This document shows positions 9,793-60,571 of a stretch of DNA of 64,000 nt, in pieces. Where the stretch lies: contig DATJAO010000038.1 of the NCBI GenBank assembly GCA_035516175.1, forward strand, positions 28,427-92,426, in the 5' to 3' direction. The notes beneath the pieces are model-generated. The model was not told where the DNA came from. It did not search any database and worked only from the letters and a program-made list of their open reading frames with translations. This DNA comes from Nitrospirota bacterium. GTDB lineage: Bacteria; Nitrospirota; UBA9217. The translations under genes were made by a program, and so were the position numbers. Each line of letters starts with the position of its first letter. The stretch's first letter is position 1.

Positions 9793-10169
9793 AAGTCGGG
9801 GAGGATGTTAAAGCTATTCCTCTCCACAGAACAAGACCGCGCCAAAGAGGATTCAATCAGCCGTTACTCTTCCCTTACCGAGTCTTCGGAGCAAGATGAT
9901 ACATCCCTCCGGTCAGTACTCCTGCACGCGGTTCGGGCAATCTTGACAAGTAATATTGCTTTGGGTATAGTTTTCACATGTCTTCCCCGTACCATCCTCC
10001 CCTTTGCCCCCGTGACGGTTCTCAGAGGTGAATATTACCTTGACTTAAAAGCCCGTATATGAAATAGTTGTTAATATAAACACCTGTGTGGAGGAGGTAA
10101 ACATCGAAATATTTGAAAATATTATAACGTAAACTGATGTATACTATAACGATAAAGGGAGGTATAAAA

Positions 10170-11027
10170 ATGTCATTGAGAAGAGCAGGCTTTTTCGCAG
10201 TCGTCATAACATTTTCCGTTCTCATTACCGGCAGCGCCTACGCACAGCTTGTAGGCACGGTCAAGGATGTAATTGATCCCGTCGGTAGCACAGGCAAGGT
10301 GGACTGGACTACGGGAGTGATAACGGCGGTTGGCATCGGCGCACCTCCGGCCCAGCCAGCGAACCCGGCTCAGGCGCGCGCGATGGCCGAGAGGTCAGCG
10401 CAAGTCGTCGCGTACCGCAATCTGCTGGAAGCAGTGAAGGGCGTACGGGTGGATTCAACTACGACCGTGGAGAACTTCATCGTCACGAGCGATGTGATCA
10501 AAACACAGGTGAATGGTATCATTCAGGGCGCCACGGTAATGGATAAAAAATACATGTCTGACGGATCAGTGGAGGTCACCGTCGGGATGCAGCTTACCGG
10601 AGCACTGGCTGAATCGCTGCTCCCAAAAACTCCTCTGACACCTCCTGGAGGGTTGCCTGGCACATCTGTTCCGGGAACCACGGGACAACTTTATACTGGT
10701 CTCATCGTGGACGCGCGTGGTCTCGGCGTCAGGCCCGCTATGGCGCCCAAGATCCTGAATGAGGATGGCAAGGAGGTCTATGGCTCCGCATGGATCAACA
10801 GGGACTATGCCGTGCGGGAAGGCATGGTCGGCTATATGAAGGATCCCGTTGCTGCTCAGGCAAATCCTCGCGTGGCGGATAAGCCGCTTATGGTAAAGGC
10901 GCTTAAGGTTTCCGGCGATGGCAGGGTGGACACGGTCATCAGCAATGCCGATGCAGCCATGCTCCAGGGCGTATCGCAGAATCTGAGCATGCTCGAAAAA
11001 TGCAGGGTTATCATTCTGGTCGATTAG
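10170..11027 (+). CDS. Secreted two-domain protein: LPP20/FlgP-like N-domain plus conserved C-terminal domain of unknown function (paralog A)
   Basis: AAGGGAGG RBS. Sec signal peptide ending TGSAYA-Q. N-domain (GIGAPPAQ...AQARAMAERSAQVVAYRNLLEAVKGVRVDS...YMSDGSVEVTV) has the alternating Ala/Leu pattern of the LPP20/FlgP lipoprotein family. C-domain (GLIVDARGLGVRPAMAPKILNEDGKEVYG...CRVIILVD) is shared with ORF 13801..14835. Confidence 0.6.
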   Translation: MSLRRAGFFAVVITFSVLITGSAYAQLVGTVKDVIDPVGSTGKVDWTTGVITAVGIGAPPAQPANPAQARAMAERSAQVVAYRNLLEAVKGVRVDSTTTVENFIVTSDVIKTQVNGIIQGATVMDKKYMSDGSVEVTVGMQLTGALAESLLPKTPLTPPGGLPGTSVPGTTGQLYTGLIVDARGLGVRPAMAPKILNEDGKEVYGSAWINRDYAVREGMVGYMKDPVAAQANPRVADKPLMVKALKVSGDGRVDTVISNADAAMLQGVSQNLSMLEKCRVIILVD

Positions 11028-11095
11028 CAAGCCGTGCGATGGTAAGAGGATCAGCCCGTATGGCCGATCTCGAGAATAACGATGGGAGGTAGGCA

Positions 11096-12274
11096 ATGTT
11101 TACAGTGGTGAAACGCCTCATACTGGCAGTAACTGCCCTCGCGGCGCTGACTGCGGTTGCTGGTTGCGGGCCCAAGGCCGCACCGTCAATGTCGGTGATG
11201 GACACGCCCGAGTATCATTATAATCAGGGTCTGAAGGCATTGGACGCCGACAGACTGGATGACGCGATGCGAGAGTTCGACCGCGCAGTCGCCCTTGACC
11301 CGAAATCTCCGTTCGGTTATATCGGCAAAGGCCTCACCTTGGGCAAAAAAGGCGACTTTAAGCCGGCCTATGAGAACATGGAAAAAGCAAAGGATTATGA
11401 GAAAAAAGGCATCGAATCCCGCATAGGCATGATCAGGCTCTACGGAATGCAGATGGCCAAGGACCAGAAGCAGGTCAATGACCTCGTCAAATCGGCCGAG
11501 CACGAATTCAAGGCTGCCAATGAGAAGGAGCCGAACAACCCGCGACTGCACTACTACATGGGGATGTGCTACAAGATGGCGCTCGATTTCGACAAAGCCG
11601 CGACGATGTTCCGCGCTGTTCTCGACATGAATCGCGACTTCGTCGGAGAAGCCAATGCAGAGTGGGCCCTGATCCAGAAGATTCAGCGCGCAGCTCCCGG
11701 AACTGAGATCGGCAAGAAGATCGCCCTCATCGACAAAATCGACCGGGCCGATATCGCAGCACTCTTCGACCAGGAGATGAACCTGGAGAAACTCTTCACC
11801 AAGCGGGGAACGAAGACCTATGATACGAGTTTCAAGGCACCAACCGAGTCATCAACCCGCTTTTCGCCGGAGACGACGGTGAAGATGGAACCCGCCACGG
11901 ATATCGAAAACAACTGGCTCAAACCGAGCATCGAAACGGTGCTCAAGCTCCAGGTCCGGGGCCTCGAGGCCGGCCCGAACCACACCTTCGAGCCTGACAA
12001 GCTGATTACGAAGGCGGAGTTCGCACTCATGCTTGAAGACATTCTGATCAAGGTTTCCGGCGACGAGAAGCTCGCCACGAAGTACATTGGTACGACGTCG
12101 CTCTTTCCCGATGTGCGGAACGACCATTACGCGTTCAATGCCATCATGGTCGTGACCTCGCGAGGCTTTATCGAGGCCGATAAGGCGACGGGTGAATTCA
12201 AACCGAATGACCCCGTGTCGGGCGCTGATGCCCTGCTCGCGATACGGGAGTTTAAGGACCAGCTTAAGTTCTAA
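11096..12274 (+). CDS. TPR-repeat lipoprotein with SLH-like C-terminal domain
   Basis: Lipobox LTAVAGC after the signal peptide. TPR repeats in residues ~40-190. C-terminus (ITKAEFALMLEDIL...FPDVRNDHYAFNAIMVVTSRGFIEA) resembles an S-layer-homology motif. A strong intrinsic terminator follows. Confidence 0.6.
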   Translation: MFTVVKRLILAVTALAALTAVAGCGPKAAPSMSVMDTPEYHYNQGLKALDADRLDDAMREFDRAVALDPKSPFGYIGKGLTLGKKGDFKPAYENMEKAKDYEKKGIESRIGMIRLYGMQMAKDQKQVNDLVKSAEHEFKAANEKEPNNPRLHYYMGMCYKMALDFDKAATMFRAVLDMNRDFVGEANAEWALIQKIQRAAPGTEIGKKIALIDKIDRADIAALFDQEMNLEKLFTKRGTKTYDTSFKAPTESSTRFSPETTVKMEPATDIENNWLKPSIETVLKLQVRGLEAGPNHTFEPDKLITKAEFALMLEDILIKVSGDEKLATKYIGTTSLFPDVRNDHYAFNAIMVVTSRGFIEADKATGEFKPNDPVSGADALLAIREFKDQLKF

Positions 12275-12288
12275 TCGGATTTACCGAT

Positions 12289-12322
12289 GCCCGCCCCGCA
12301 TATATCGGGGCGGGCTTTTTTG
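12289..12322 (+). terminator. Rho-independent terminator (GC stem gcccgccccg/cggggcggg plus T6)
   Basis: Perfect 9-10 bp GC-rich inverted repeat with an 8-nt loop, followed by TTTTTT, 15 nt after the stop of the TPR lipoprotein gene. Confidence 0.85.
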
Positions 12323-12327
12323 ATGTC

Positions 12328-13719
12328 ATGATGAACAGACCTCTATTCGCAATGATAATTCTTGCCGGAATCTGTTTTCCAGGCATTGCCGGCGCCGAAC
12401 TGAAAGTACTCTCCGGCGAGCACACCGTTGTTTATGACATCGTCAATCCACGGGGAGTAGCCTTTATTCCCGATTATTCCAATGAATCATCCGAACAGAA
12501 AGTTATCAGTCAGGACGAGTTCAGCAAACGGGTGCAAGTGACCTCCAAGATGTACCCCATGAAGACCCGTGTTCCGTATCCTATTCAGGGTGGAGTTATG
12601 CCTCCGTCTGTAATGCAGTACCTTGTGCCGGAACGTGACCGGCAGTCCAATGACCCCGCAATCGTGCGCCTTGCACAGGACGTGACTCGTGGCAGCCGGT
12701 ACGCCCATGAAGCGGCCAACGCAATCCTATCATGGATTGCGGACAACCTGACATTCGATACGAGCATCTCAACGCCTTCAGATGCACTCTCGGCGCTGAG
12801 GTACAAAAAAGCCTATTGCGTCGGCTACTCCAATCTCGCTGTGGCAATGCTCAGAGCGGCAGGCATCCCCGCTCGCGTGGCCCACGGCTATCTCCCGCCG
12901 GGATATGATTGGGGTTTTTCAAAAGAATATTGGGGTGTTAAAGTCAATGACGGCGGCTTCCACGCCTATCTGGAGATATACTATCCCGATACTGGATGGG
13001 TATTTTCCGATGCCGAGCATTCCCATAATTTCGTAGATCCATTCCATATCGTTCTTCACCTCGACGGAATGGAAATGCCGGGAGCGTACAAAGGAGGCTA
13101 TCTGGAAGTTGACAAGGCCACATTCTACACCATCTTTCAGGAAGAGGATAAGTCCGTAATGGTCGATGAACTGCCTATACCGAAAGAGAAGCGGCTCGGC
13201 AGGCGTCTGGACGATGTTCAGCATTCGGCGCTCGTAACAGGCAGGGTAACCGATACTAATGGCGCCCCGGTGCAAAAAGGTTCTGCGGTCTTATGGAAAG
13301 ACGGCAGGGGTACGCCGTATCCATTCGCTGACGGCCATTATGCCGCGGCACTGACGATCCCGGGGAAATACCGGGTTGAACTAAAAGGCCCTGGTTTTGC
13401 AAAGTCGTCCCAAGAACTTCAGATAGAACAGGGGACAGTATACCGGCTGAATTTTACCCTGCATCCGGGCGGTAGCATTAAGGGAAAAGTTACAGATTCG
13501 GCGGGCAGGCCCATTGAGGATGGCGACGTTTTCTATCGTGACGGGAACACCAGTTACGGCGTTTCCATCGAAAAAGACGGCACATATAGAATAGAAGGTC
13601 TTGCCCCTGGTCAATACAAAGTATCTGTCATGACGGGCAATAGGGAGACATCGCGTACAGGCCAGGTGGAAGCAGGCAAAGAAACCTTGATGGATTTTAT
13701 TGTACCTATGGTAAAATAA
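12328..13719 (+). CDS. Secreted transglutaminase-like cysteine protease-fold protein with two C-terminal carboxypeptidase-regulatory-like (Ig/transthyretin-like) domains
   Basis: Signal peptide (AGICFPGIAGA). Transglutaminase-core motif YKKAYCVGYSNLAVAMLRAAGIPARVAHGY with downstream H and D (HAYLEIYYPDTGWVFSD). Two repeats of the GxVTDxxGxPxxxG...Y beta-sandwich pattern (GRVTDTNGAP..., GKVTDSAGRP...). Confidence 0.65.
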   Translation: MMNRPLFAMIILAGICFPGIAGAELKVLSGEHTVVYDIVNPRGVAFIPDYSNESSEQKVISQDEFSKRVQVTSKMYPMKTRVPYPIQGGVMPPSVMQYLVPERDRQSNDPAIVRLAQDVTRGSRYAHEAANAILSWIADNLTFDTSISTPSDALSALRYKKAYCVGYSNLAVAMLRAAGIPARVAHGYLPPGYDWGFSKEYWGVKVNDGGFHAYLEIYYPDTGWVFSDAEHSHNFVDPFHIVLHLDGMEMPGAYKGGYLEVDKATFYTIFQEEDKSVMVDELPIPKEKRLGRRLDDVQHSALVTGRVTDTNGAPVQKGSAVLWKDGRGTPYPFADGHYAAALTIPGKYRVELKGPGFAKSSQELQIEQGTVYRLNFTLHPGGSIKGKVTDSAGRPIEDGDVFYRDGNTSYGVSIEKDGTYRIEGLAPGQYKVSVMTGNRETSRTGQVEAGKETLMDFIVPMVK

Positions 13720-13800
13720 TGTGAAGGGAAAATGGTCTTGAAGGAGTCCTGCGTCTTTTTTGTCTTTCCTATTTCATGACATAGTAGCTTGAGGGACAGA

Positions 13801-14835
13801 ATGAAAAAATACCCCATTAATGTTTTTATCCTTACTTTTTGTCTTCTGTATTCTGGATCTTTGTGGGCACAGACCTTCGGCCTGGCGGATGCGGTAGAGA
13901 CCACGGCCGCTGGCGCGATCAACTGGACAGTCGGAGAAGTCTATGCGAAGGGGATCGGAGCACCTCCGGCATTTCCCGGGAATGCGGCCCAGGCCCGAGC
14001 CATGGCCGAACGGGCGGCATACGTAGTAGCGCTCAGAAACCTGCTTGAAACCGTCAAGGGGGTCCGTGTTGACGCTGAAACCGTTGTTGAGAACTATATA
14101 GTAAAGAGCGACGTGATCAGGACCAGGGTGGAGGGAATCGTCAAGGGCGCCAGGATCGTGAACACCCAGTACATGCCGGACGGTTCGGTCGAAGTGCTTG
14201 TAGCAATGCCCATGAGAGGGGCTTTTTTGAATGCTATTGTACCGGACTCGTTCGGCAGACCGTCGATAATCCCGGTTCCTCAGAAACCGGCGCCTGTTGC
14301 ACCAGAAAAAAAGATAGAGCCACTGAAACCCGAACCGACCATACCAGCGCCTCCTGCTTTGCCTGAGACAAAAATAGAGCCTCCGAAGCCTTCACCACAG
14401 CCCCAGCAACCCGAAAAGAAAGCAGAACCGTCAAAGCCTGAGCCTGTTCAGCCCGTTCCCGCACCGCAGGGTCAGCCGACGGTGGCGTTCAAAGGCGGCG
14501 TCGCCACCGGACTGGTGATAGACGGCAGAGGGCTGGGTTTGAGGCCTGCACTGTTGCCGAAGATAGTCGATCAGCAGGGCCAGGAAATCTACGTAGGTCA
14601 GGTCGTAACCAGAACGAATGCCGTTGAACAAGGCGTAGCCGGCTATGCGAAAGATGTAAATGCCGCCACGAACAATTTTCGGGTGACCGACAACCCGGCC
14701 GTCATCAAGGGGGTGAACGCGTCCGGTGCGGCGAGAACGGATGTCGTAATCGGCCAGGCTGATGCGCAGGCACTCCGGCAAATGTCCGGAAAAGGCGATT
14801 TTCTGCAGTATTGCAGGGTCATCATTGTCTACTGA
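13801..14835 (+). CDS. Secreted two-domain LPP20/FlgP-like protein with Pro-rich imperfect-repeat linker (paralog B)
   Basis: GAGGG RBS before the ATG at 13801 (the track ORF begins at a TTG at 13789). Signal peptide. N-domain GIGAPPAFPGNAAQARAMAERAAYVVALRNLLETVKGVRVDAETVVENYIVKSDVIRTRVEGIVKGARIV...YMPDGSVEVLV is co-linear with paralog A. A Pro-rich linker follows with three imperfect KxEPxKPxP repeats. The C-domain is shared (GLVIDGRGLGLRPALLPKIVDQQGQEIYVG...CRVIIVY). Confidence 0.6.
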   Translation: MKKYPINVFILTFCLLYSGSLWAQTFGLADAVETTAAGAINWTVGEVYAKGIGAPPAFPGNAAQARAMAERAAYVVALRNLLETVKGVRVDAETVVENYIVKSDVIRTRVEGIVKGARIVNTQYMPDGSVEVLVAMPMRGAFLNAIVPDSFGRPSIIPVPQKPAPVAPEKKIEPLKPEPTIPAPPALPETKIEPPKPSPQPQQPEKKAEPSKPEPVQPVPAPQGQPTVAFKGGVATGLVIDGRGLGLRPALLPKIVDQQGQEIYVGQVVTRTNAVEQGVAGYAKDVNAATNNFRVTDNPAVIKGVNASGAARTDVVIGQADAQALRQMSGKGDFLQYCRVIIVY

Positions 14836-15018
14836 TCCCCTGATTCGCGAAAAAACGTCACCGTGATTATTCTCGGTGCATTTTTCGTCACGGCAATGAT
14901 TCTTGACATGATCGGCCTGTTTGTGATAGGAAGTAACAGAACATATTCGGGCTGTGTGTGATCGCGACCGGTTTGGTTGTGATAAAATATTTTTCCTGAA
15001 CTTATCTGGAGCATGTTC

Positions 15019-16395
15019 ATGCCAAGGGCCGCATCGCGGTTTTACATAGTGTTTTTTGTTTTCATCGTGTTAGCAGGATGCGTACCACCCCGGCCCATAC
15101 CGCGATATCGGGATGTCAGCAACCCCCTCAAACGAGTGGCCGTATTACCGATGAAAAACGATACCTTGGATGTCGATGGTCCGAATGTTGTCAGAAAAAA
15201 GATGATCGCGGCCCTGGAAAATAAATCCTATTATGTAAAAAACACGCAAGAAACAGACCAGATACTCCGCGATCAAATGGGGATCAATCTCGGTGGACAG
15301 CTGGAGTTGACAACACCGCAGAAAATCGGCGAGGTTTTGGGCGTTGAAGGATTATTATATGGAACGCTCATGGATTTCGATGAGACAACAACAGGCCTGC
15401 TGGACGTTAAAAAGGTCAGAGCGAAATTCAAGCTCGTGAACGCGATGACGGGCCAGACAGTCTGGGAACGGGGGCTCGGGGTAAGGTCGGAAGTGAGAAT
15501 GTCAGGAACATCGGGAAGCGCTGTTGCTCTTGCTGCCCGTGCGGCGGATGCCAAGGAAAAAGATGTTCCCTGGGTGACCATCGAGAGCGCTGCCACCAAC
15601 GAGAAAAATGTCGGGCGTTCTCTGGCGTATAGCGTCGGGGCTCAGCTTTTTTCCAAAGCCGTCGGCATCCATCTTGACTATGAATCATCCGAGCTCGTAC
15701 GAAGGGTCGCGGATAACCTACCCTGGGGGCCCGGCCCGGTTGATGTAGCCACTTTACCGCCGCCCGTGATTACGGTTCCTGAAATCAAGATGCCCGAACC
15801 ACCATCGTTCGGGTATATGGATTGGGAAGGAAAACGGGATTTCTCCGCGGTCATCTTCTCCACCTCTTTTGATAAGAGCAGGAACGAGCCCATTAACATG
15901 GAAACCCCGATAGCGATCGCAGGGAACAGAATTCGGATGGACATGGATATGTCAGGGATGATGAAAGGGGCGTCACAGTCCCCGCTCAGCAAGGTGGTCA
16001 TGATCGGTCGGGGCGATAAGAATATCAGTTATACCCTTTATCCCAATAGCCAGAAATACATGGTTCATAAGGAAAATGCGGAAATAAGGGAAAAACCCCA
16101 GATCGAGAGGACCATAGTAGGTAGCGAGGTTGTCAATAAGCATCCGACTGACAAGTTCAAGGTACGGATCACCTATAAGGATGGGAGGGTCGAGGAAGGC
16201 TTTATCTGGAACGCCAGAGATCTCGACGGCATGACCATTAAGAGCGAAGTGGAGAATAAAGACTTCAAAATAACAACGGAGCTGAGGCACATCGTCCTCA
16301 GGACTCCTCGCGCCTCGTTGTTCGAGATACCGGATGGCTATGCGGAGGCCAAGAGTATCATGGATTTGATGTCTTCAGAGCCGAATAAGAAATAA
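15019..16395 (+). CDS. Lipoprotein with N-terminal CsgG/DUF799-like (TolB-N-like fold) domain and C-terminal beta-rich domain of unknown function
   Basis: Lipobox VLAGC. N-domain pattern RVAVLPMKNDT...VVRKKMIAALENKSYYV...ETDQILRD...GVEGLLYGTLMDFDE parallels the CsgG/GNA1162-type motif (VxVLPFxNxT...amphipathic helix...LxGxIxxY). A ~230 aa C-terminal domain has no recognisable signature. Confidence 0.55.
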   Translation: MPRAASRFYIVFFVFIVLAGCVPPRPIPRYRDVSNPLKRVAVLPMKNDTLDVDGPNVVRKKMIAALENKSYYVKNTQETDQILRDQMGINLGGQLELTTPQKIGEVLGVEGLLYGTLMDFDETTTGLLDVKKVRAKFKLVNAMTGQTVWERGLGVRSEVRMSGTSGSAVALAARAADAKEKDVPWVTIESAATNEKNVGRSLAYSVGAQLFSKAVGIHLDYESSELVRRVADNLPWGPGPVDVATLPPPVITVPEIKMPEPPSFGYMDWEGKRDFSAVIFSTSFDKSRNEPINMETPIAIAGNRIRMDMDMSGMMKGASQSPLSKVVMIGRGDKNISYTLYPNSQKYMVHKENAEIREKPQIERTIVGSEVVNKHPTDKFKVRITYKDGRVEEGFIWNARDLDGMTIKSEVENKDFKITTELRHIVLRTPRASLFEIPDGYAEAKSIMDLMSSEPNKK

Positions 16396-16435
16396 TGTAT
16401 AAGAACACAGAATGCGAGCACAAGGAGGCGACACA

Positions 16436-17410
16436 ATGAAAAGAGGTTCATGGTTGACACTGGCAATCATGCTGTTGGTCTCGGTCGTGCCCATCATAGG
16501 TGGTTGCGGCCCCACGACGTCAGGAGCTGTCAAAAATGACACGACCCTGACAGATACTTCAAGGCAGCTGAAAACGACGAGCAGCGTCTCGGAATACAAA
16601 GGTCCTAAACTCCGGGTAGGCGTGGTCAATTTCCAGAACAAGACCCCTTCGAGGGTGCTGGGGATTGGAGAAGCTGCCGCCGATATTCTGGGGACCATCC
16701 TGCAGAATACCGACCGTTTCATCGTCATTCCACAGCAGGACATGGAATCCATCCTCTCGCAGCAGCGCATGGGCGCAACGGGGGCGGTCAATCCTGACAC
16801 TGCTGCCGAGATGGGAAAGGTGCTGGGACTGAATGCGATCGTGACCGGCGCAGTGACTGCCTATTCCGAAACAGAAGAAGGTTCCGATTACCTTGTGGCG
16901 AAAAGCAAGAAACAAATCGCGCGAGTCACGGTGGATTACCGCATTGTCGATACGACCACGGGAGTACAGCTCATGGCTGATTCCGGCGCGGGAATCTATT
17001 CCAAATCAGAAAGCAGGGTTCTCGGGATGGGTTCCAAAGCAGGATACGACCCCGATCTTCGCGACGGCGCCCTTCGGGACGCCCTGACCAAGGCCATGGT
17101 CAACATGATGCAAAAACTCGGCACTAAGAAGTGGAACGGTCGGATCGCCCAGATCGACGGAGACAACCTGTACATCAATGCTGGCCAGAGGTCCGGTTTG
17201 AACGTTGGGGACAAACTCAAGGTCTTCAGGACGGGCAAGGATATCATTGATCCGGTGACCAAAATGAAGCTCGGAACAACGGAAAACCTGATTGGTGAGG
17301 CGATCGTGCAACAGAATGACCTCGGTGACCAGGCCGATCTCTCCATTGCAAGGCCGACTTCTGGCACCGGTTTCAAGGCGGGAGACGTCGTTAAGCTGAG
17401 CGAGAAGTGA
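16436..17410 (+). CDS. CsgG-family outer-membrane lipoprotein with small C-terminal beta domain
   Basis: Lipobox IIGGC. KLRVGVVNFQNKT...AADILGTILQNTDRFIVIPQQDMESILSQQ...LNAIVTGAVTAYSE matches the E. coli CsgG segments IFVSVYNIQDET...ATAMLVTALKDSRWFIPLERQGLQNLLNER...ANIMVEGSIIGYES block by block. Start chosen at MKRGSWL inside track ORF 16412. Confidence 0.7.
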   Translation: MKRGSWLTLAIMLLVSVVPIIGGCGPTTSGAVKNDTTLTDTSRQLKTTSSVSEYKGPKLRVGVVNFQNKTPSRVLGIGEAAADILGTILQNTDRFIVIPQQDMESILSQQRMGATGAVNPDTAAEMGKVLGLNAIVTGAVTAYSETEEGSDYLVAKSKKQIARVTVDYRIVDTTTGVQLMADSGAGIYSKSESRVLGMGSKAGYDPDLRDGALRDALTKAMVNMMQKLGTKKWNGRIAQIDGDNLYINAGQRSGLNVGDKLKVFRTGKDIIDPVTKMKLGTTENLIGEAIVQQNDLGDQADLSIARPTSGTGFKAGDVVKLSEK

Positions 17411-17447
17411 TGGCTTATGGTGCGGGAGTGCCTGAAAGGATGATCCC

Positions 17448-18215
17448 ATGATGAAGCGCTTCATATATGGTGCCGCTGCCTTGCTCATAACGCTCTGGTG
17501 TCTCTCATTCGCGTCTGCAGCAGAAGAACCGGCGGCGAACACCGAGGCAATGGTTACCATGATCGAAGGAACCGCCCACGTCTTCACCAAGGGAGCGCCA
17601 GCCGAGATCCCACTCAAGAAAGGGAGCAAGCTCACGAGAGGACAGGAGATCAGGGTGGGAGCGAATTCCAGGATGGAAATTCGATTTCCCGATGGAACTG
17701 TTATGAGACTAGCGGAAAAATCCCGTCTGGTCATGGATGATGTGCTTTACGATAGCAAGACCGAGAACAAAAGTGTCAAAGTCAATCTCGCTGTCGGAAA
17801 ACTCTGGGCAAACGTAAAGAAGCTCGTGACCCCGGATTCTACAGTCGAGGTTAGAACCAGTAACGCCGTCGCCGGTGTGAGGGGAACCGTGTACCGGGTG
17901 AATGTGGAAGAAGATAAGAGCGCAGTGGTCAAGGTCTATGATGGAACGGTGTATGTGGCCAACCCGCCGAAAGAAGAATCGGGGAAGCCACCAAGGGAGG
18001 TTTCAGGTCCGGTTCCCGTTCCCGGGCCGCACGAGGTGCCTCCACCGTATCACGAAGTGACTATGGAGGAGTGGCAGGTGATCGTACAATCCTTCCAGCA
18101 GGTTACCATTTCACCGGAGGGTGTAGCATCGCAACCGCAGGATTTCGATCCCAAAGCTGACGCTGATGACTGGGTGAAGTGGAACCAGGAGAGGGACAAG
18201 CAAACCCGGTTTTAA
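17448..18215 (+). CDS. Secreted FecR-domain protein
   Basis: Signal peptide (LWCLSFASAA). FecR-like beta-sandwich motifs (RMEIRFPDGTVMRLAEKSRLVMD ... GVRGTVYRV). Contains neither a sigma-factor nor an anti-sigma transmembrane segment. Confidence 0.6.
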   Translation: MMKRFIYGAAALLITLWCLSFASAAEEPAANTEAMVTMIEGTAHVFTKGAPAEIPLKKGSKLTRGQEIRVGANSRMEIRFPDGTVMRLAEKSRLVMDDVLYDSKTENKSVKVNLAVGKLWANVKKLVTPDSTVEVRTSNAVAGVRGTVYRVNVEEDKSAVVKVYDGTVYVANPPKEESGKPPREVSGPVPVPGPHEVPPPYHEVTMEEWQVIVQSFQQVTISPEGVASQPQDFDPKADADDWVKWNQERDKQTRF

Positions 18216-18305
18216 GAACTATTGCAGAAACTGAACGTAAGAACAAGGCCGTTCCGATCCATGGAATGGCCTTTCCTTTTTTACAGAAAAGCCGTTGAAA
18301 AACAC

Positions 18306-18334
18306 TTGACACTAGATGCCCACCATGGTATAAA
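18306..18334 (+). promoter_or_regulatory. sigma-70-type promoter (TTGACA-17-TATAAA) for fur
   Basis: TTGACA at 18306-18311 and TATAAA at 18329-18334 with a 17-nt spacer, about 30 nt upstream of the fur ATG. Confidence 0.5.
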
Positions 18335-18340
18335 AGCAAT

Positions 18341-18361
18341 TGATATTGGTTTTCAATATCA
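18341..18361 (+). promoter_or_regulatory. Perfect inverted repeat TGATATTG-N5-CAATATCA overlapping the predicted fur transcription start (candidate Fur box, autoregulation)
   Basis: 8-bp arms separated by 5 nt. AT-rich TGATA/TATCA arms resemble the Fur-box half sites GATAAT/ATTATC. Position between -10 and ATG. Confidence 0.5.
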
Positions 18362-18365
18362 TGAT

Positions 18366-18806
18366 ATGCGGAAAAAACCTTCTGAACATTTAGCGGAATA
18401 TCTTTCGAGGCAAGGGCTCAAGTCGACCCAGCAGCGAGACAAGATACTTCAAATCTTTGTGGACGCAGGCAGACACGTGAGTGCGGAAGAACTCTATGAA
18501 CATGTGAAAAAAGTCCATCCCGGCATTGGCTACGCCACGGTGTATCGGACGCTCAAGCTCCTGACCAACGCAGGGCTCGCGGAGGAGAGACGGTTTGAAG
18601 ATGGATTCACGCGCTATGAGTACAAGGTCTCTGACGGGCATCACGATCACCTCATCTGTACAAAATGTGGCACAATCATAGAATTCGAGAATCAACGCAT
18701 TGAAGCACTTCAGCAGGACGTTGCAAGAAAAAACCGATTTAAAGTACAAAGTCACAAACTGGAACTGTATGGCTTATGCGCAGTTTGTCAGAAGAAGATG
18801 GAGTAA
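18366..18806 (+). CDS. fur: Ferric uptake regulator family transcription factor
   Basis: 146 aa from the internal ATG. wHTH QRDKILQIF...SAEELYEHV. Metal-site residues HHDH...CTKCG...C...C. Located downstream of the promoter and operator above. Confidence 0.85.
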   Translation: MRKKPSEHLAEYLSRQGLKSTQQRDKILQIFVDAGRHVSAEELYEHVKKVHPGIGYATVYRTLKLLTNAGLAEERRFEDGFTRYEYKVSDGHHDHLICTKCGTIIEFENQRIEALQQDVARKNRFKVQSHKLELYGLCAVCQKKME

Positions 18807-18870
18807 CTAAGCCTTACGGAGTGCGTTTGTGATCTCGGGCCATGGCGGCTATCGGTTATGAAATGATAAG

Positions 18871-20883
18871 GTGCCTATTTCGGAGGAAATGCTCATAATG
18901 AACAACCAGGATTCTGGCGACGGTGGACGCAATCGCGACTCCAGTCTTAATAAGGTTCTCTTGATCGGTAATCCGAATGTGGGCAAGAGCGCGCTCTTCG
19001 GGCTGCTTACGGGCAAATACGTTACCGTCTCGAACTATCCCGGTACCACCGTGGAAGTGACCTATGGAAACGCACTCTTGAACAAGACGCGTACCCTGGT
19101 GATCGACACGCCCGGTGTGAACAGCCTCGTACCCATGTCTGAAGACGAAAAAGTTACGAGGGACATGCTGCTTACCGACCGGGCCGGGGTCGTTGTCCAG
19201 GTGGCCGATACCAAAAACCTGCGGCGAGGGCTTCTCATTACTCTCCAGCTCTCGGAAATGGAGGTGCCATTCATCCTTGACCTCAATATGGACGATGAGG
19301 CAAAGAGCCGTGGCATTTTCATTGACCAGGAAAAACTATCCCATTTGCTCGGCATAGAAGTAGTCAAAACCGTGGCTATTCGCAGGAGCGGGATCGACAA
19401 GCTGCTGAAAGGCATTCAGCACCCACGGCCGTCCACGATCGGAGTGCGTTACGATGACGTGATCGAGGGGGGGATAAGGGACATCTCCGCTCTGCTACCG
19501 GGAGCAAACATTGCTCAACGCGCGCTTGCGCTCATGATTCTCGCTGGTGATGAAAGCCTCAAGTCTTGGCTTCACTCGAACCTGCAGGACCACGTGATCA
19601 CTGAAATTGAAAAGATACGGCAGGAAGTTCAGGCTAAATTTAATAACTCTCTTGGCTATCTCATTAACCAGCGCAGAATAAAAAAGGCTGATGAGATCCT
19701 TGCGCAGGTTATGAGCCGCCATGAAGCAGGAAAGGGATCAGCTATCTCATTTTATATCGGCAAATGGTCCATGCACCCGGTTTATGGTATCCCGATCCTT
19801 TTCGCTGTGTTGTATGCTATATATCAATTCGTCGGTGTATTCGGAGCGGGTACGGTTGTCAATTTTCTTGAAAAAACTGTATTTGGAGCATACCTCAACC
19901 CCTGGGTCACAAAGATCGTTCATTTCATTTTGCCTGTTCCGTTTTTGCAGGAGTTAATTATCGGTGACTATGGTTTGGTGACCATGGCCGTCACCTACGC
20001 GATCGCAATCGTGCTGCCGATCGTGAGCTTTTTTTTCATAGCTTTTGGTCTCCTCGAAGACTCGGGATATCTGCCGCGACTCGCAGTCATGGTAAACAAA
20101 ATTTTTAAGGTTATGGGCCTGAACGGCAAGGCTGTGCTTCCCATGATCCTCGGTCTAGGATGCGACACCATGGCAACGCTCACAACGCGTATTCTCGAAA
20201 CGAAGAAGGAGCGTCTCCTCGTAACGTTTTTGCTCGCTCTCGGCGTGCCCTGTTCCGCTCAACTTGGCGTTGTGCTTGGAATGATTTCCGGGGTCTCCGG
20301 CCTGGCAACGGTAATCTGGCTCGGGACCATGACTGGCGTTCTCCTCCTTGTTGGATATCTTGCATCGAAATTGATCCCCGGCGATCCGTCGGACTTTGTG
20401 CTCGAACTGCCGCCGATACGAATTCCACAGGTTACGAACATTCTGATCAAAACCATAGCCAGGGTACAATGGTATTTAAAAGAGGCAGTGCCGCTTTTTA
20501 TTTTGGGGACATTTATCTTGTTTGCAGCAAATAAGGTGGGTGCTCTTACGTTCATTCAAAAAATGGCTGATCCAATCGTGGTCGGCCTCTTGGGGTTGCC
20601 GAGCAAAGCCGCTGAAGCATTTGTCATAGGGTTCCTTCGCAGAGACTACGGTGCTGCAGGATTGTTTATGCTTGCAAAGCAGAACCTGCTCGATCCAATC
20701 CAGATTGTCGTGAGTCTCGTGGTGATGACACTTTTTGTGCCGTGTATTGCAAACTTCTTTATGATGGTGAAGGAACAGGGACTCAAAGCAGCTTTTTACA
20801 TGGCAGCATTCATCTTCCCTTTTGCTGTTGCTGTTGGGGCAGCGCTGAATTGGGCGCTCAGGACTTTCAGAGTCGCGTTGTGA
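18871..20883 (+). CDS. feoB: Ferrous iron transporter FeoB (G-domain plus polytopic membrane domain)
   Basis: G1 motif GNPNVGKS, DTPG, 670 aa with many TM helices and Gate motifs. A possible Fur-box-like ATGAAATGATAAGG lies just upstream. The start may be one of the downstream ATGs at 18889/18898. Confidence 0.9.
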   Translation: MPISEEMLIMNNQDSGDGGRNRDSSLNKVLLIGNPNVGKSALFGLLTGKYVTVSNYPGTTVEVTYGNALLNKTRTLVIDTPGVNSLVPMSEDEKVTRDMLLTDRAGVVVQVADTKNLRRGLLITLQLSEMEVPFILDLNMDDEAKSRGIFIDQEKLSHLLGIEVVKTVAIRRSGIDKLLKGIQHPRPSTIGVRYDDVIEGGIRDISALLPGANIAQRALALMILAGDESLKSWLHSNLQDHVITEIEKIRQEVQAKFNNSLGYLINQRRIKKADEILAQVMSRHEAGKGSAISFYIGKWSMHPVYGIPILFAVLYAIYQFVGVFGAGTVVNFLEKTVFGAYLNPWVTKIVHFILPVPFLQELIIGDYGLVTMAVTYAIAIVLPIVSFFFIAFGLLEDSGYLPRLAVMVNKIFKVMGLNGKAVLPMILGLGCDTMATLTTRILETKKERLLVTFLLALGVPCSAQLGVVLGMISGVSGLATVIWLGTMTGVLLLVGYLASKLIPGDPSDFVLELPPIRIPQVTNILIKTIARVQWYLKEAVPLFILGTFILFAANKVGALTFIQKMADPIVVGLLGLPSKAAEAFVIGFLRRDYGAAGLFMLAKQNLLDPIQIVVSLVVMTLFVPCIANFFMMVKEQGLKAAFYMAAFIFPFAVAVGAALNWALRTFRVAL

Positions 20884-22083: not shown

Positions 22084-23508
22084 ATGGGGAAACAACCAAC
22101 CATATTGCTTGTGGATGATGAGCTGCTGGTTTTGGATTCACTCCGCGAACTCGTTACCCGCGAAGAAAAATACAACGTGACAACCGCGGAAAACGGCAAG
22201 ATCGCGCTGGAAATGACTGCGCGGGAAGATTATGCGGTCGTCATTACCGATTTGATGCTGAAGGACATAACCGGAATCGAGCTTCTCAAGACCATAAAGT
22301 CTCAAACGCCCGAAACGCAGGTGATCATGGTCAGCGGAAAGGGGAGCATAGATTTTGCGGTCGAAGCCATGAAGATGGGAGCCTTCGATTTTCTTACCAA
22401 GCCCTATTCTCCTTCCCACCTGCTTCAGATACTGGCCAGAGCGAAGGCCTATTACGAATCTCTTGTGGAGAATAAACAGCTGAAAGGCGAAATCAGAAGA
22501 CTGAAGAAGAATTATGAGATCATCGGTACCCACCCGAAGATACAGCGGATCAGGGAGATCATCGAGAACATAGCACCCTCGGACAGCACGGTTCTGATCC
22601 AGGGAAAAAGCGGCAGTGGAAAAGAACTGGTAGCCAGGGCAATACATAACCGATCGCTTCGCGCTGAGGGGCCCTTCCAGGCAGTAAACTGTGGCGTCTT
22701 TACCGAAACGCTGATTGAAAATGAATTGTTCGGCCATGAAAAGGGCGCCTATACCGGCGCTGTTCAGCGAGCGATCGGCAGAGTAGAGGCCTCGGCCGGC
22801 GGCACCCTGTTCCTCGATGAGATCGACACCATGCCCGTCAGCTCACAGGTGAAGCTGTTGCGGGTGCTTGAGGAGCGCTCGTTTCAAAGAATAGGCGGGA
22901 CCAAACCAATTTATGTGGATTTCAGGCTGATTGCAGCCACGAATAGCGATCTCCAGGATGCTGTTACAAAGAAACTTTTCCGTGATGACCTGTACTACCG
23001 TCTCAATGTCATTACCATGACCCTCCCCGAACTCAGCGAACGACTGAGCGATATTCCTCTCCTGGTAAACTACTTCATGGAACGGTATAAAGTCAGAAGC
23101 AACGTACAGTCCATCTCCGCAGCCGCTATGGACATCCTTTTAAAATATCCGTGGCCCGGCAATGTCAGGGAACTTGTGAATGCCATCGAATATTCCATGG
23201 TCATGGCAAAGGGAACCCAGATCCTTCCGGCAGACCTGCCCGAGGCCTTGCAGGTCAGGATTTTTGAACCGCATCAGCAGGTGCGTGAATCCCTTTCGCT
23301 CAAGGAAACAGAACGAGATTTAATCGTGAGGACATTGAAAGAATGTCATGGCAACAAGCATCTCGCCGCAAAACTACTTAGAATCCCCCGTTCTACACTC
23401 TACAGCAAGATCCAGAAACATGGGATCTCGATAGACGAGGATGCTGCCATTTCTCCGACTGAGCAGGAAAAAAGTACCAGCAAATCGCCCCTTGCTGTCC
23501 AGAATTAG
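22084..23508 (+). CDS. sigma-54-dependent response regulator (NtrC family: REC + AAA+ + Fis-type HTH)
   Basis: REC (LLVDDELLVLDSL...D). sigma-54 activator core with Walker A GKSGSGKE and a GAYTGA motif where GAFTGA is expected (Phe to Tyr variant). ESELFGHEKGAYTGA. C-terminal HTH LLRIPRSTLYSKIQKHGI. Confidence 0.9.
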   Translation: MGKQPTILLVDDELLVLDSLRELVTREEKYNVTTAENGKIALEMTAREDYAVVITDLMLKDITGIELLKTIKSQTPETQVIMVSGKGSIDFAVEAMKMGAFDFLTKPYSPSHLLQILARAKAYYESLVENKQLKGEIRRLKKNYEIIGTHPKIQRIREIIENIAPSDSTVLIQGKSGSGKELVARAIHNRSLRAEGPFQAVNCGVFTETLIENELFGHEKGAYTGAVQRAIGRVEASAGGTLFLDEIDTMPVSSQVKLLRVLEERSFQRIGGTKPIYVDFRLIAATNSDLQDAVTKKLFRDDLYYRLNVITMTLPELSERLSDIPLLVNYFMERYKVRSNVQSISAAAMDILLKYPWPGNVRELVNAIEYSMVMAKGTQILPADLPEALQVRIFEPHQQVRESLSLKETERDLIVRTLKECHGNKHLAAKLLRIPRSTLYSKIQKHGISIDEDAAISPTEQEKSTSKSPLAVQN

Positions 23509-24173: not shown

Positions 24174-24240
24174 GCTGATGCAACACAGCGGCACGCGGGA
24201 GCTGCCAGCGCACAAAAACAGACTTCAGAAAGGCATACTC

Positions 24241-36899: not shown

Positions 36900-37045
36900 A
36901 GCAATAGCATGTCTCATGAGCAGCACATCATTCTTGGACGCACGAAGGTCACGGGAAAATAGGTGTGGGGTTTTATTCAGTGCTCTCTGTGTCTTTGTGA
37001 TTGTCCAGATTCCTTTCAGTCGGCCCGTATTTGATAAAGGTCTCC

Positions 37046-41070: not shown

Positions 41071-41091
41071 CGACATGCGAAGGGAGGAAAG

Positions 41092-41541: not shown

Positions 41542-41550
41542 GGACAGGGA

Positions 41551-42645: not shown

Positions 42646-42718
42646 AAAAGTTCATAGCATCGTGGTATTCTGTATTTGCATTAGGTATCCTGTATCATGC
42701 ATCGTCCACCGTTTCATC

Positions 42719-60337: not shown

Positions 60338-60571
60338 GTCCTTGCACCCCGCGGTTTTATGCGTTCGGTAAAATTTACTATAGTGAAGAAAGAAAGATAA
60401 TTCCTGATCGTAAAGCAATTTCAACCTTTCCTATAAGTATATCATGACACCACACTTGTAATCATATATAATAATATTCATGGCATAGTTCATTACAATT
60501 GAAATTCTTGCTAAAATAGAAAGAAAAAGCCAGCCACAATGGCACCAAGACACAAAGAGAGGAACTCGCTC

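Follow-up and report, generated by a model that had tools for sequence, protein, structure and literature searches.

Rings of FlgP each hold a continuous sheet formed by a β-hairpin insert, and across the family the presence of this insert goes along with the formation of rings (PMC12222027). In treponemes, a tandem of two domains (D1-D2) is fused to an OmpA-like wall-binding domain (PMC5104382), and in Neisseria meningitidis the genes for a DUF799 and a CsgG-family protein are found one gene apart (NMAA_0892 to 0894) (PMC5282872). SLH/CsaB was reported as practically absent from Gracilicutes (bioRxiv 10.1101/2021.05.31.446380). Here, we analyzed a Nitrospirota locus in which relatives of these proteins are encoded side by side, within a window of 64,000 nucleotides (the whole stretch of DNA under analysis). 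A previous reading of the letters of this window (the sequence-only reading) had taken six of the genes for one undescribed module and had suggested a comparison across Desulfobacterota and Myxococcota genomes; the host is a member of Nitrospirota. A full-text literature search yielded no description of such a cluster, in agreement with that reading. What is new is a conserved FlgP/FlgT-related envelope operon outside the flagellar context, with a predicted wall-binding lipoprotein and a transglutaminase-like enzyme.

Locus organization and transcription signals

Seven consecutive genes for exported proteins (g1-g7) are located on the + strand at 10137-18215 (Table 1). The first six were confirmed as open reading frames exactly where the sequence-only reading had placed them, each with a Sec signal or a lipobox, while g7 had remained outside its span. 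Export signals were read directly from the sequences and their homologs: the signal peptides of g1, g3, g4, and g7 are of the Sec type and lack a cysteine, and g2 (AVAGC, followed by GPK), g5 (LAGC), and g6 (IGGC) have lipoboxes, the cysteine of which is kept in nearly all homologs. The probable starts differ from the predicted ones for g1 (GGGAGG ribosome-binding site), g4 (a 100% identical database protein of 344 aa), and g6 (orthologs of 324 aa).

Table 1 Positions of genes and transcription signals in the window
Feature	Position	Strand	Basis and remarks
σ70-type promoter-like site, TTGACA-17-TATAGT	9943..9971	+	11/12 consensus matches, upstream of g1; candidate from consensus match only
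g1, Sec-exported non-lipidated FlgP/LPP20-like + Tp0624 D2-like protein	10137..11027	+	probable start 10170
g2, outer-membrane lipoprotein, TPR + SLH-like	11096..12274	+	Pfam, lipobox
Intrinsic terminator/attenuator between g2 and g3, GCCCGCCCCG-loop-CGGGGCGGGC-T6	12289..12321	+	hairpin 12289-12315, 10 G-C pairs
g3, Sec-exported transglutaminase-like enzyme + two Ig-like domains	12328..13719	+	Pfam, triad C164/H212/D228
g4, g1 paralog with long linker	13789..14835	+	LPP20 match; probable start 13801
Weak terminator-like site after g4	14961-14983		weaker than g2-g3 terminator
g5, DUF799 + DUF4412-like lipoprotein	15013..16395	+	Pfam, 4HRV match
g6, CsgG-family + FlgT_C/TsaP-like lipoprotein	16412..17410	+	Pfam; probable start 16436
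g7, Sec-exported FecR-domain protein, LipL45/Lsa33-like	17448..18215	+	Pfam
Terminator-like hairpin after g7	18245..18273	+	weaker than g2-g3 terminator; likely end of second transcription unit

The intergenic gaps are short across the block, and the sole conserved internal terminator is the one after g2; 38 of the 41 orthologous loci retain it, and its stem sequences vary yet stay complementary. Two transcription units, as suggested earlier, remain likely, but the strong terminator that divides them does not follow the third gene, as had been proposed. Unit 1 likely comprises g1-g2 and unit 2 g3-g7, the latter ending at the hairpin after g7; a comparable hairpin with a T-run was present in 14 of 24 loci. 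No σ54-type promoter was matched between 9790 and 10137.

The absence of curli and flagellar structural genes from the window, claimed in the sequence-only reading, was upheld by a Pfam scan of 39 of its open reading frames (including most of those ≥ 150 aa outside the block). None turned up among the flanking genes scanned in four distant loci, and flagellar structural genes were likewise lacking in the contigs for which Pfam labels had been precomputed. The window had no csgA/B/E/F-like or obvious cargo gene, and genes for FlgQ, PflA/B, FlgO, and MotX/Y were not found. A chemotaxis cluster (CheW/R/A/B/X) is located at 24.2-29.7 kb of the window, 6 kb from the block, and a σ54 response regulator is also encoded nearby.

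Conservation and modular structure

The same genes follow one another in the same order at 22 other loci, and sub-modules are found in several phyla, a recurrence far beyond chance; the genes are a conserved, co-inherited envelope set. The module was conserved between unrelated flanks in Nitrospirota, Nitrospira, Desulfobacterota, KSB1, Calditrichia, and other MAGs. Across 75 distinct loci, its cross-phylum core is the g1-g2 pair, often followed by FlgT_N-like, CsgG/FlgT_C-like, and FecR-like genes; g4-g3 forms a second pair, maintained even with inverted gene order, g5 and g6 are gained or lost together (both are absent from six related Nitrospirota genomes that retain g1-g4 and g7), and g7 is co-conserved with the block. 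Distant clusters additionally encode, beside the g6 homolog, a FlgT_N protein that scored 32.6 and 34.6 bits (cut-off 28.8). The conserved terminator coincides exactly with the boundary of the g1-g2 module. The block is thus composed of three or more sub-modules and a seventh gene, with an operon boundary after g2, and not one six-gene module as previously assumed. As some Nitrospirota have only parts of the seven-gene set, the seven proteins need not make one complex. In Nitrospira, a CHASE2-cyclase is located inside the cluster, and in Desulfobacterota the g4-g3 pair is followed by a histidine kinase and a response-regulator cyclase.

The subsets carried by several related genomes, and the housekeeping flanks (LapB, GpmI, Fur, FeoB) that are equally syntenic in close relatives, would fit a mere adjacency of unrelated envelope genes in one Nitrospirota lineage. 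However, g1-g2, g4-g3, and g1-g2-(FlgT_N)-g6-g7 recur in other phyla between unrelated flanks, with one order inverted, and the short gaps and the single conserved internal terminator also speak for a joint function, the lack of which we consider very improbable.

FlgP-like proteins and their putative link to the cell wall

As had been recognized earlier, g1 and g4 are LPP20/FlgP-like paralogs (about 41-46% identity): the Pfam LPP20 model reached 27.6 bits in g4, above its cut-off, and 25.3 bits in g1, slightly below the cut-off of 25.9. The N-domain of g1 has an SHS2 fold with a β-hairpin insert (residues 103-128), a segment that is strongly conserved among homologs but was modeled with low confidence in the monomer. 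A 16-aa linker connects it to a C-domain resembling D2 of Treponema pallidum Tp0624; in g4, the FlgP-like and D2-like domains are separated by 78 aa rich in Pro, Lys, Glu, and Gln. Both g1 and g4 are homologs of the D1-D2 tandem unit of Tp0624, their closest structurally known relative, which the sequence-only reading had missed. The N-domain of the g1/g4 family profile also matched chain C of the Campylobacter jejuni structure 9HMF, with E 6.9e-13 and no gap across the β-hairpin insert, as well as Vibrio FlgP (E 4e-4 to 0.04). The entry names chain C (171 aa) "Lipoprotein, putative", and we take it to be FlgP. Solely from the alignment, we infer that g1 and g4 may polymerize.

The second gene encodes the expected TPR lipoprotein with an SLH-like tail, with hits to several TPR families in the N-terminal part and an SLH match (40.1 bits) within a C-terminal repeat pair (about residues 283-392) that also resembles the SLH region of Bacillus anthracis Sap (E 4e-4). 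Both the SLH region and the lipobox are conserved across phyla. One of the repeats is significant and one was found by eye, compared to three in canonical SLH, and the ligand-binding motif is SGAD, compared to the canonical TRAE. Of the 65 g1-type genes whose downstream sequence was long enough, 58 are followed by an SLH lipoprotein of the g2 type, and most of the other seven are second g1-type copies in Nitrospira loci. Together with the treponemal D1-D2/OmpA fusion, this adjacency suggests a domain-fusion-type link of g1 to wall binding.

The product of g3 was correctly described as transglutaminase-like with Ig-like domains (Transglut_core 86.4 bits, two C-terminal CarboxypepD_reg domains). 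Its Cys-His-Asp triad is invariant in 46 of 46 homologs, and it matched PDB entry 6G49 (E 8e-5), which bears the name protein-glutamine gamma-glutamyltransferase. In Desulfobacterota, g3 stays next to g4 despite the inverted gene order.

Putative ring-type lipoproteins and alternative functions

The assignments of g5 to DUF799 and of g6 to the CsgG family were both sustained. In g5, GNA1162-like/DUF799 (47.3 bits) covers the N-domain and DUF4412 (28.6 bits) the C-terminal half, and GNA1162 (4HRV) was matched with E 9e-8 by g5 alone and 2e-8 by the family profile. CsgG reached 80.8 bits in g6 and FlgT_C 24.1 bits, under its cut-off of 27; the C-domain resembles TsaP by sequence (E 8e-9), while sequence similarity to FlgT is marginal (E 0.034). 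In the fold comparison, which used a poor model (pLDDT 52), g6 matched full-length FlgT best (3W1E, E 4e-12, 300 columns). The 255-aa g7 is soluble and has a FecR domain (69.6 bits).

Because the similarities to FlgP and FlgT are real and chemotaxis genes are only 6 kb away, we retained a flagellar motor accessory as an explanation: a counterpart, in the Nitrospirota flagellum, of the outer-membrane-proximal disk or the H-ring, with g1 and g4 as FlgP, g6 as FlgT, and g2 as a PflA/PflB-like TPR scaffold. The profile matches to both FlgP proteins, the FlgT fold match and weak FlgT_C hit of g6, the FlgT_N proteins of distant clusters, and the neighboring chemotaxis genes and σ54 response regulator agree with it, and flgPQ of C. 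jejuni are reportedly not embedded among flagellar genes either. It is nevertheless unlikely, as no scan of the 64-kb window, the four sets of distant flanks, or the Pfam-labelled contigs revealed a flagellar structural gene, the flanks differ from phylum to phylum, and the promoter-like site is of the σ70 type with no σ54 match upstream. Moreover, FlgP is a lipoprotein and g1 and g4 are not, g5 gave no FlgO-like match, and D2, SLH, the transglutaminase-like enzyme, and FecR are absent from the published descriptions of disk and H-ring components that were compared.

A secretion channel would have g6 as a CsgG-like nonameric pore of the outer membrane exporting, e.g., g1/g4 or a fiber subunit, with g5, g2, and g7 as periplasmic adaptors. 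Besides the CsgG score, its lipid anchor, and the match of a diverse g6 family profile to Escherichia coli CsgG (E 3e-12), distant FCB-type homologs have a Gly-rich hairpin of 20-22 residues like that of CsgG TM1, and pairs of TPR and ring lipoproteins are known from export systems such as Pel, with PelC among the fold matches of g6. However, the TM1 equivalent of g6 and its Nitrospirota orthologs has 16 residues, 5-7 of them charged, compared to a Gly-rich stretch of 25 residues in E. coli CsgG, and the match stops before TM2, where 20 polar residues are found; a curli-type pore is unlikely because these hairpins are short and charged. The lack of csgA/B/E/F-like or obvious cargo genes, the dispensability of g5/g6 in the six related genomes, and the resemblance to FlgT, a periplasmic ring protein (though the model is weak), add to this, and we regard such a channel as quite improbable.

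FecR domains are periplasmic partners in signaling systems, and the lipoproteins could together with g7 regulate or sense peptidoglycan, with g3 as a wall endopeptidase or isopeptidase and g1/g4 as non-polymerizing adaptors. The LpoB/CsgG fold class shared by g5 and g6, the intact papain-like triad and 6G49 match of g3, the predicted wall-binding region of g2, and the signaling genes in Nitrospira and Desulfobacterota clusters are in line with such a role. Yet the LpoB matches of g6 (E 0.015 and 7e-4) are far under cut-offs, and a penicillin-binding protein, a σ/anti-σ pair, and a FecR part that spans the membrane are all absent. Abundant structural subunits would also account better than regulators for the conserved ring-forming hairpin of g1/g4 and for the strong terminator that follows g1-g2, and we regard wall remodeling or surveillance as improbable.

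A proposed envelope scaffold

We tentatively propose that the block encodes parts of an oligomeric, non-enzymatic envelope scaffold or tether that is anchored on the periplasmic side of the outer membrane and attached to the wall. A previously undescribed scaffold beneath this membrane is most likely, rather than a curli-type secretion channel, because the proteins are related to the ring-forming FlgP and FlgT yet are encoded away from flagellar genes. Of the two options raised by the sequence-only reading, the ring scaffold is plausible, given the FlgP hairpin and the FlgT_C/TsaP domain of g6, and the channel weak. From directly supported elements (homologies, export signals, conserved catalytic triad, module structure, terminator) we infer polymerization, contacts among parts, wall ligand, and cellular role as follows.

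Unit 1, with its σ70-like promoter and conserved terminator, would be the source of the main building blocks: soluble g1 may polymerize through the β-hairpin insert of its FlgP-like domain into arcs, rings, or sheets, as in FlgP basal disks, while g2 would bind this polymer with its TPR part and peptidoglycan or a wall polymer with its SLH repeats. Unit 2 would supply less abundant accessories, and the terminator after g2 would fit main subunits produced in excess over them. Among the accessories, g4, the FlgP-like paralog of g1 with the long Pro-rich linker, would be processed or cross-linked (or the wall in its place) by the genetically coupled g3, a presumably active transglutaminase-like enzyme; g5 (DUF799) and g6 (CsgG/FlgT-like) may be two ring-type outer-membrane lipoproteins and g7 a FecR-like β-rich partner. 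The scaffold could tether or space outer membrane and wall, or form a collar around another envelope machine. The missing lipid anchor of g1 and g4, the poor g6 model, the non-canonical SLH repeats and motif of g2, and the partial gene sets of some Nitrospirota count against this proposal.

Comparison with known systems

The lipoprotein g6 belongs to the same family as the CsgG curli channel, but its equivalents of the CsgG membrane hairpins are truncated and charged and the block has no curli genes. Compared with the Neisseria pair of DUF799/GNA1162 and CsgG-like proteins, g5 adds a DUF4412 half and no gene intervenes between g5 and g6. The C-domain of g6 matches the type IV pilus protein TsaP, which presumably encircles the pilus secretin as a ring, although the LysM domain of TsaP is missing from g6. 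In a low-confidence model, the TolB-N/CsgG-type α/β domain and the FlgT_C-type domain of g6 resemble the M and C domains of Vibrio FlgT (3W1E), which has an additional N-domain, whereas g6 is a lipoprotein without it.

FlgP of the Campylobacter basal disk and the Vibrio H-ring shares with g1/g4 the N-domain and its ring-building β-hairpin insert, aligned without gaps. It is, however, a small lipoprotein (mature form about 11.5 kDa) of the flagellar motor, in contrast to g1/g4, which have no lipid, an added D2, and a non-flagellar gene context. In OmpM/SlpA tethers of diderm Terrabacteria, as in g2, a periplasmic SLH on an outer-membrane anchor is expected to link the outer membrane to the wall; the anchor there is a β-barrel and the motif TRAE, whereas g2 has a lipid-modified cysteine with TPR repeats and SGAD, and its host phyla are Gracilicutes. 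The D1-D2 tandem homologous to g1/g4 is found in Tp0624 (PDB 5JIR) together with a third, OmpA-like domain, whereas in the block wall binding would come in trans from the SLH lipoprotein g2.

Organization of the gene block

ORF calling in the window gave seven successive plus-strand ORFs between positions 10137 and 18215 (g1-g7), with no unassigned ORF inside the block. The six genes described by the sequence-only reading were real and carried the domains named for them in Pfam, but that reading had overlooked the seventh, the FecR-domain gene g7. NCBIfam added only TPR matches of a generic kind and, for g7, matches of the LipL45/Lsa33 type. The probable true starts of g1, g4 and g6 are 10170, 13801 and 16436, respectively. 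Lipoboxes were found in g2, g5 and g6 and Sec-type signals without cysteine in g1, g3, g4 and g7, patterns that were kept across homologs; by these signals, all seven products are predicted to be exported, three of them as outer-membrane-type lipoproteins.

Features of the window with their positions, strand and supporting evidence
Feature	Position	Strand	Evidence
σ70-type promoter-like site, near-consensus	9943-9971	+	consensus match, upstream of g1
g1, FlgP/LPP20-like	10137-11027	+	LPP20 25.3 bits, cut-off 25.9 (Pfam)
g2, TPR/SLH lipoprotein	11096-12274	+	TPR families; SLH PF00395 40.1 bits, cut-off 20.8 (Pfam)
Strongest terminator	12289-12315 (with T-run to 12321)	+	directly after g2
g3, transglutaminase-like	12328-13719	+	Transglut_core PF01841 86.4 bits; two CarboxypepD_reg domains (Pfam)
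g4, FlgP/LPP20-like	13789-14835	+	LPP20 27.6 bits (Pfam)
g5, DUF799 lipoprotein	15013-16395	+	GNA1162-like/DUF799 47.3 bits; DUF4412 28.6 bits (Pfam)
g6, CsgG/FlgT_C-like lipoprotein	16412-17410	+	CsgG PF03783 80.8 bits; FlgT_C 24.1 bits, under cut-off 27 (Pfam)
g7, FecR-domain protein	17448-18215	+	FecR 69.6 bits (Pfam)
Terminator-like hairpin	18245-18273	+	after g7, within 5' part of mechanically called Fur ORF
Chemotaxis cluster	CheW 24178-24750, CheR, CheA-CheW fusion, CheB, CheX 29197-29667		

No σ54-type site was found ahead of g1, and σ54 matches across the whole window were at chance level. The block had been said to hold a single terminator, placed after the third gene; instead, the strongest one comes after g2 and another terminator-like site follows g7. 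The Fur ORF, as mechanically called, spans 18222-18806 with a TTG start at 18222; tblastn matches elsewhere often begin near residues 40-49, and the real start probably lies downstream of 18222.

Distribution and gene order in other genomes

Species-representative genomes scanned with the g1/g4 family yielded 74 loci, to which two metagenome contigs were added, one of them a duplicate, giving 75 distinct loci (all MAGs or metagenome contigs) onto which the window proteins were mapped. The anticipated co-occurrence of the six genes in relatives held for 22 Nitrospirota loci, where they stand together and in order, but only subsets were present in other loci.

Gene content of the compared loci
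Genes present	Loci	Taxa
Full g1-g7, order unchanged	22	Nitrospirota
g1-g2-g3-g4-g7, without g5 and g6	6	Nitrospirota
Without g5, g6 divergent	3	Nitrospirota
g1-g2 only, Fur directly next	1 (L051)	Nitrospirota
g1 only	1 (L060)	Nitrospirota
g1-g2-g1'-g4	6	Nitrospira
g4-g3 pair only, order inverted	11	Desulfobacterota and related MAGs
g1-g2, then mostly gap gene, g6-like and/or g7-like gene	12	KSB1, Calditrichia, MAGs labelled Cytophagia or Deferribacteres, some Desulfobacterales

Where enough downstream sequence was available, a g2-like gene followed the g1-type gene in 58 of 65 cases; the seven g1-type genes that did not lead into g2 were mostly the second g1-type copy of the Nitrospira loci. 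The gap gene (~400 aa), which follows g1-g2 in distant loci, scored 32.6 and 34.6 bits for FlgT_N against a cut-off of 28.8 in the two loci scanned, and the flanks of the distant loci were mutually unrelated and non-flagellar among the genes scanned in four of them. In several phyla, the genes are thus co-inherited as modules, apart from flagellar and curli genes. That they are clustered by mere chance is highly improbable, given the cross-phylum recurrence of the gene combinations.

A hairpin terminator was present 3' of g2 in 38 of 41 loci, while each of the other internal junctions had such a hairpin in 0-4 loci. The stems differ in sequence between loci yet remain complementary (e.g., GCCCGCCCCG, GCCCGCTCCG, GCCCGCCCCTGG), so the terminator has been kept through considerable divergence, in an intergenic gap of just ~55 nt. 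Taken with the module structure, its position indicates that the transcription boundary is also the evolutionary module boundary, between g1-g2 and g3-g7. A terminator right after two genes would fit major subunits that are produced in excess of accessory factors.

Several loci carried further genes of related types. In Nitrospira, a DUF799-β-helix fusion was found in 5/6 loci where contigs reach, four of which continue to more DUF799 genes and a CsgG-like gene, and no transglutaminase-like gene was seen in these loci by protein mapping (with Pfam in L040 only). The L040 region 11428-20152 encodes a 923-aa DUF799 fusion with a right-handed β-helix (NosD-like), a CHASE2-adenylate/guanylate cyclase, a FlgT_N + DUF6175 protein and further DUF799-like and CsgG-like genes (Pfam); protein mapping gave a similar gene order in L035, L038 and L041. 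A third protein, with an LPP20/FlgP-like domain at the C-terminal end, has its gene on the other strand, downstream of FeoB by a few kb, in L002 (20193-21077, -), L004 (13721-14671, -), L010 (18236-19147, -) and ~10 other Nitrospirota loci, and in L002 it additionally has CarboxypepD_reg/SdrD_B domains. As many related loci have such a paralog downstream of FeoB, it was also sought in the window, where there is none. In the Desulfobacterota locus L044 (126-7958), g4-g3 is flanked by an MprF-like lysyl-phosphatidylglycerol synthase membrane domain, a sugar epimerase/dehydratase, a GAF histidine kinase and a response-regulator cyclase (Pfam, L044 only), with ORFs matching in size and position in L054 and partly in L047; these flanks hint at envelope-lipid or signalling links.

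FlgP-like proteins with a Tp0624-type domain tandem

The paralogs g1 and g4 share 41-46% identity across two domains. The g1 model (mean pLDDT 73, C-domain well predicted) had as its best structural match Treponema pallidum Tp0624 (Foldseek E 2e-9, 277 columns), and the C-domain of the g1/g4 family profile matched Tp0624 residues 137-261, i.e., domain D2 (E 1.7e-5). The N-domain of the profile matched chain C of the Campylobacter jejuni motor scaffold 9HMF (E 6.9e-13), which is deposited as a 171-aa "Lipoprotein, putative" and which we take to be FlgP, as well as Vibrio FlgP chains (E 4e-4 to 0.04). Both domain profiles placed D1 before D2 in g1, in g4 and in nearly all homologs from the loci. 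Domains D1-D2 form a tandem unit, and some 50 proteins from other bacteria have it with no OmpA-like D3 (Parker et al. 2016, PMC5104382); g1 and g4, which terminate at D2 and have no OmpA family match in Pfam, belong to this D3-less group. The D1-D2 group comprises 5318 clusters at 50% identity (E≤1e-3), or 1051 at E≤1e-30. A protein search with a 125-aa Tp0624 D2 fragment, aimed at treponemal contigs, gave no match.

FlgP has a modified SHS2 fold, in which a β-hairpin insert builds the unbroken sheet of every ring in the disk; across the family, presence of this insert correlates with ring formation (Drobnič et al. 2025, PMC12222027). The placement of LPP20 in one TolB-N-like superfamily with CsgG and DUF799, as first proposed, did not hold up: LPP20/FlgP is SHS2-type. 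The alignment of g1 to C. jejuni FlgP is gap-free through the insert, and the corresponding segment, residues 103-128, is highly conserved yet forms the low-confidence stretch of the monomer model, as expected of an inter-subunit element. By sequence, both g1 and g4 have an SHS2-type domain that includes the ring-forming β-hairpin insert. A lipobox was absent from g1, g4 and >95% of their homologs, which have Sec-type signals instead.

The linker between D1 and D2 measures 12-48 aa and contains hardly any Lys or Glu in the proteins encoded next to g2, and 60-107 aa, Pro-rich and usually also Lys/Glu-rich, in those encoded next to g3. As the long Pro-rich linkers track the g3 neighbour, the Lys/Gln-rich g4 linker was considered as a substrate of the transglutaminase-like enzyme; Lys content is inconstant among such linkers (0-3 Lys in L032, L024, L043 and L033), however, and this role is no more than speculative.

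Predicted wall-binding region of g2 and catalytic triad of g3

Besides its Pfam SLH score, g2 has a Sap SLH match (E 4e-4), and its lipobox (G-C-G-P-K) and two SLH-like repeats are kept across phyla. This 392-aa lipoprotein is built from TPR and SLH parts and has no β-barrel. OmpM-type tethers bind a pyruvylated wall polymer or modified peptidoglycan, with CsaB encoded in the genome; no pyruvyl-transferase family was found among the ORFs scanned in the 64-kb window. SLH and CsaB have been reported to be practically absent from Gracilicutes (Witwinowski et al., bioRxiv 10.1101/2021.05.31.446380), and an SLH region in a Gracilicutes bacterium is unusual.

In g3, the Cys-His-Asp triad (C164, H212, D228) is invariant in 46/46 homologs, down to 41% identity, which places the protein in the transglutaminase-like cysteine protease superfamily, with its papain-like triad intact. 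For the g3-g7 unit, a wall-remodelling or sensing complex is a possible alternative.

CsgG-family and DUF799 lipoproteins

The identification of g6 as a CsgG-family lipoprotein was borne out by its Pfam score, by a lipobox (IGGC) whose cysteine is kept by homologs, and by the public annotation of its orthologs (CsgG/HfaB family). A profile of close orthologs matched only TsaP in the PDB, with no CsgG match, while a more diverse profile matched E. coli CsgG (E 3e-12, N-domain), TsaP (8e-9, C-domain) and FlgT (0.034); from these alignments, g6 is best described as a CsgG-family lipoprotein with a putative FlgT_C/TsaP-type domain. The g6 model was poor (pLDDT 52) since the available homologs are all at least 74% identical, and it was used as supporting evidence only, the sequence alignment to CsgG being relied on. 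Its best fold match was full-length FlgT (3W1E, E 4e-12, 300 columns), followed by CsgG (about 4e-8 to 1e-7), GNA1162, PelC and LpoB.

The g6 segment equivalent to the first membrane-spanning hairpin of CsgG (TM1) has 16 aa, 7 of them charged (ETEEGSDYLVAKSKKQ), against 25 Gly-rich residues in E. coli CsgG, and the alignment ends ahead of the second (TM2), whose equivalent is 20 polar residues. Given the short, charged TM1-equivalent and the match that ends before TM2, a component of a periplasmic ring is a likelier role for g6 than a pore of the curli type. The g6-like genes in L059, L061, L062, L065, L067, L070, L071, L075 and L076, which are distant FCB-type homologs, encode a TM1-like hairpin that is Gly-rich, 20-22 residues long and similar to the CsgG one (e.g., GGRIKGIGIGVK), whereas the Nitrospirota and Nitrospira proteins have the 16-residue charged version, so the family may include both pore-forming and non-pore members.

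The N-domain of g5 matched GNA1162 (4HRV; E 9e-8 with g5 by itself as query and 2e-8 with the family profile), and its profile had no match among solved FlgO chains. Only 16 nt separate g5 from g6, and the six Nitrospirota variants without these genes lack both together. The idea that the block encodes a CsgG-type channel, to which the family membership of g6 might point, is weakened by the truncated hairpins of g6 and by the dispensability of g5-g6.

Genomic surroundings and the flagellar alternative

The nearest homologs were those of Nitrospirota MAGs. In the remainder of the window, housekeeping genes lie upstream (LpxK, proline biosynthesis genes, LapB, GpmI) and downstream (Fur, FeoB, RecJ, RelA and others) of the block. 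There are also two separate outer-membrane-factor/HlyD-type efflux clusters, at 39769-44601 (with a MacB-like permease) and 58829-63132 (with an ABC ATPase). A 385-aa plus-strand ORF (37001-38158) with no Pfam match at E≤1e-6 sits between an aminotransferase gene and the former, TolC/HlyD/MacB-type cluster. A σ54-dependent response regulator (22084-23508) precedes the chemotaxis cluster at 24.2-29.7 kb.

The chemotaxis cluster makes it probable that motility in this organism is under chemotaxis control. A flagellar accessory role for the gene set is the strongest rival explanation, since the resemblance to FlgP and FlgT is genuine and chemotaxis genes lie close by; we still rate it unlikely because of the gene context, the promoter type, the missing lipidation and the additional parts. 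As the first reading had stated, no curli or flagellar structural genes were found in the window: Pfam scans of 39 of its ORFs gave neither a curli family (csgA/B, csgE/F) nor a flagellar structural gene, and the latter were also missing from the genes scanned at four distant loci and from the contigs with precomputed Pfam labels.

Interpretation and significance

We infer that the products assemble as an oligomeric scaffold beneath the outer membrane that is tied to the cell wall. Two of the proteins carry the FlgP-type ring-forming element, one has an SLH region, and another has a papain-like triad that is intact. One argument for the wall linkage is of a domain-fusion type: in treponemes D1-D2 is joined to an OmpA-like domain, and here it is encoded beside an SLH lipoprotein gene. 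In its full form our reading is tentative and on balance doubtful: the g1-g2 core, with FlgT_N-like, CsgG/FlgT_C-like and FecR-like companions, would form a ring or lattice of its own beneath the outer membrane, independent of flagella, pinned to the wall by the SLH lipoprotein and widespread in Nitrospirota, Desulfobacterota and FCB-group phyla. It would be the sort of scaffold that supplied flagella with their FlgP disks and FlgT H-rings and, in Gracilicutes, which have no known example, an outer-membrane tether based on SLH.

All folds are already known, and we rate the gene set as a putative FlgP/FlgT-family scaffold of periplasmic ring or disk type. Full-text literature searches found no account of this gene cluster, nor a described function for the gene system or the D1-D2 family in the literature that could be searched. 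The operon reveals a large branch of the FlgP family (the 1051 clusters at 50% identity and E≤1e-30) that retains the ring-forming insert, is fused to Tp0624 D2 and, outside any flagellar gene context, is genetically linked to CsgG/FlgT-like lipoproteins and a predicted wall-binding one. Among the add-on parts of flagellar motors, FlgP and FlgT are textbook cases. If the scaffold reading is true, the gene set offers a testable candidate for a pre-flagellar role of such proteins and a context for the orphan Tp0624 fold of the syphilis spirochete, and the SLH-lipoprotein tether joins the short list of diderm outer-membrane-to-wall attachments. If the block encodes a Nitrospirota flagellar disk instead, motor accessory diversity is extended to a new phylum, with new parts.

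Comparison with known systems

FlgP systems are associated with flagellar genes (FlgQ, PflA/B, FlgO/T, MotX/Y) or σ54/σ28 promoters, while g1-g7 had no flagellar structural gene beside them in the window or among the genes scanned in other loci, and a σ70-type promoter-like site with no σ54 match; FlgP is moreover an outer-membrane lipoprotein with an N-terminal Cys, whereas g1 and g4 are predicted to be unlipidated. Tp0624 carries a C-terminal OmpA-like D3 that is treponeme-specific, and g1 and g4 share D1-D2 only. Vibrio FlgT has an N-M-C architecture, of which g6 has M-like and C-like domains (in the pLDDT 52 model) without the N-domain, and FlgT_N is encoded by a separate gene in the distant clusters only. 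In CsgG, two membrane-spanning β-hairpins (TM1, TM2) build a 36-strand barrel, and from the alignment the g6 equivalents are not predicted to do so. The OmpM-type tether has a periplasmic SLH domain in common with g2, but its anchor is a β-barrel porin and that of g2 a lipoprotein. In Neisseria meningitidis, the DUF799 and CsgG-family genes lie one gene apart (PMC5282872), and g5-g6 likewise pair a DUF799/GNA1162 lipoprotein with a CsgG-like one, here side by side.
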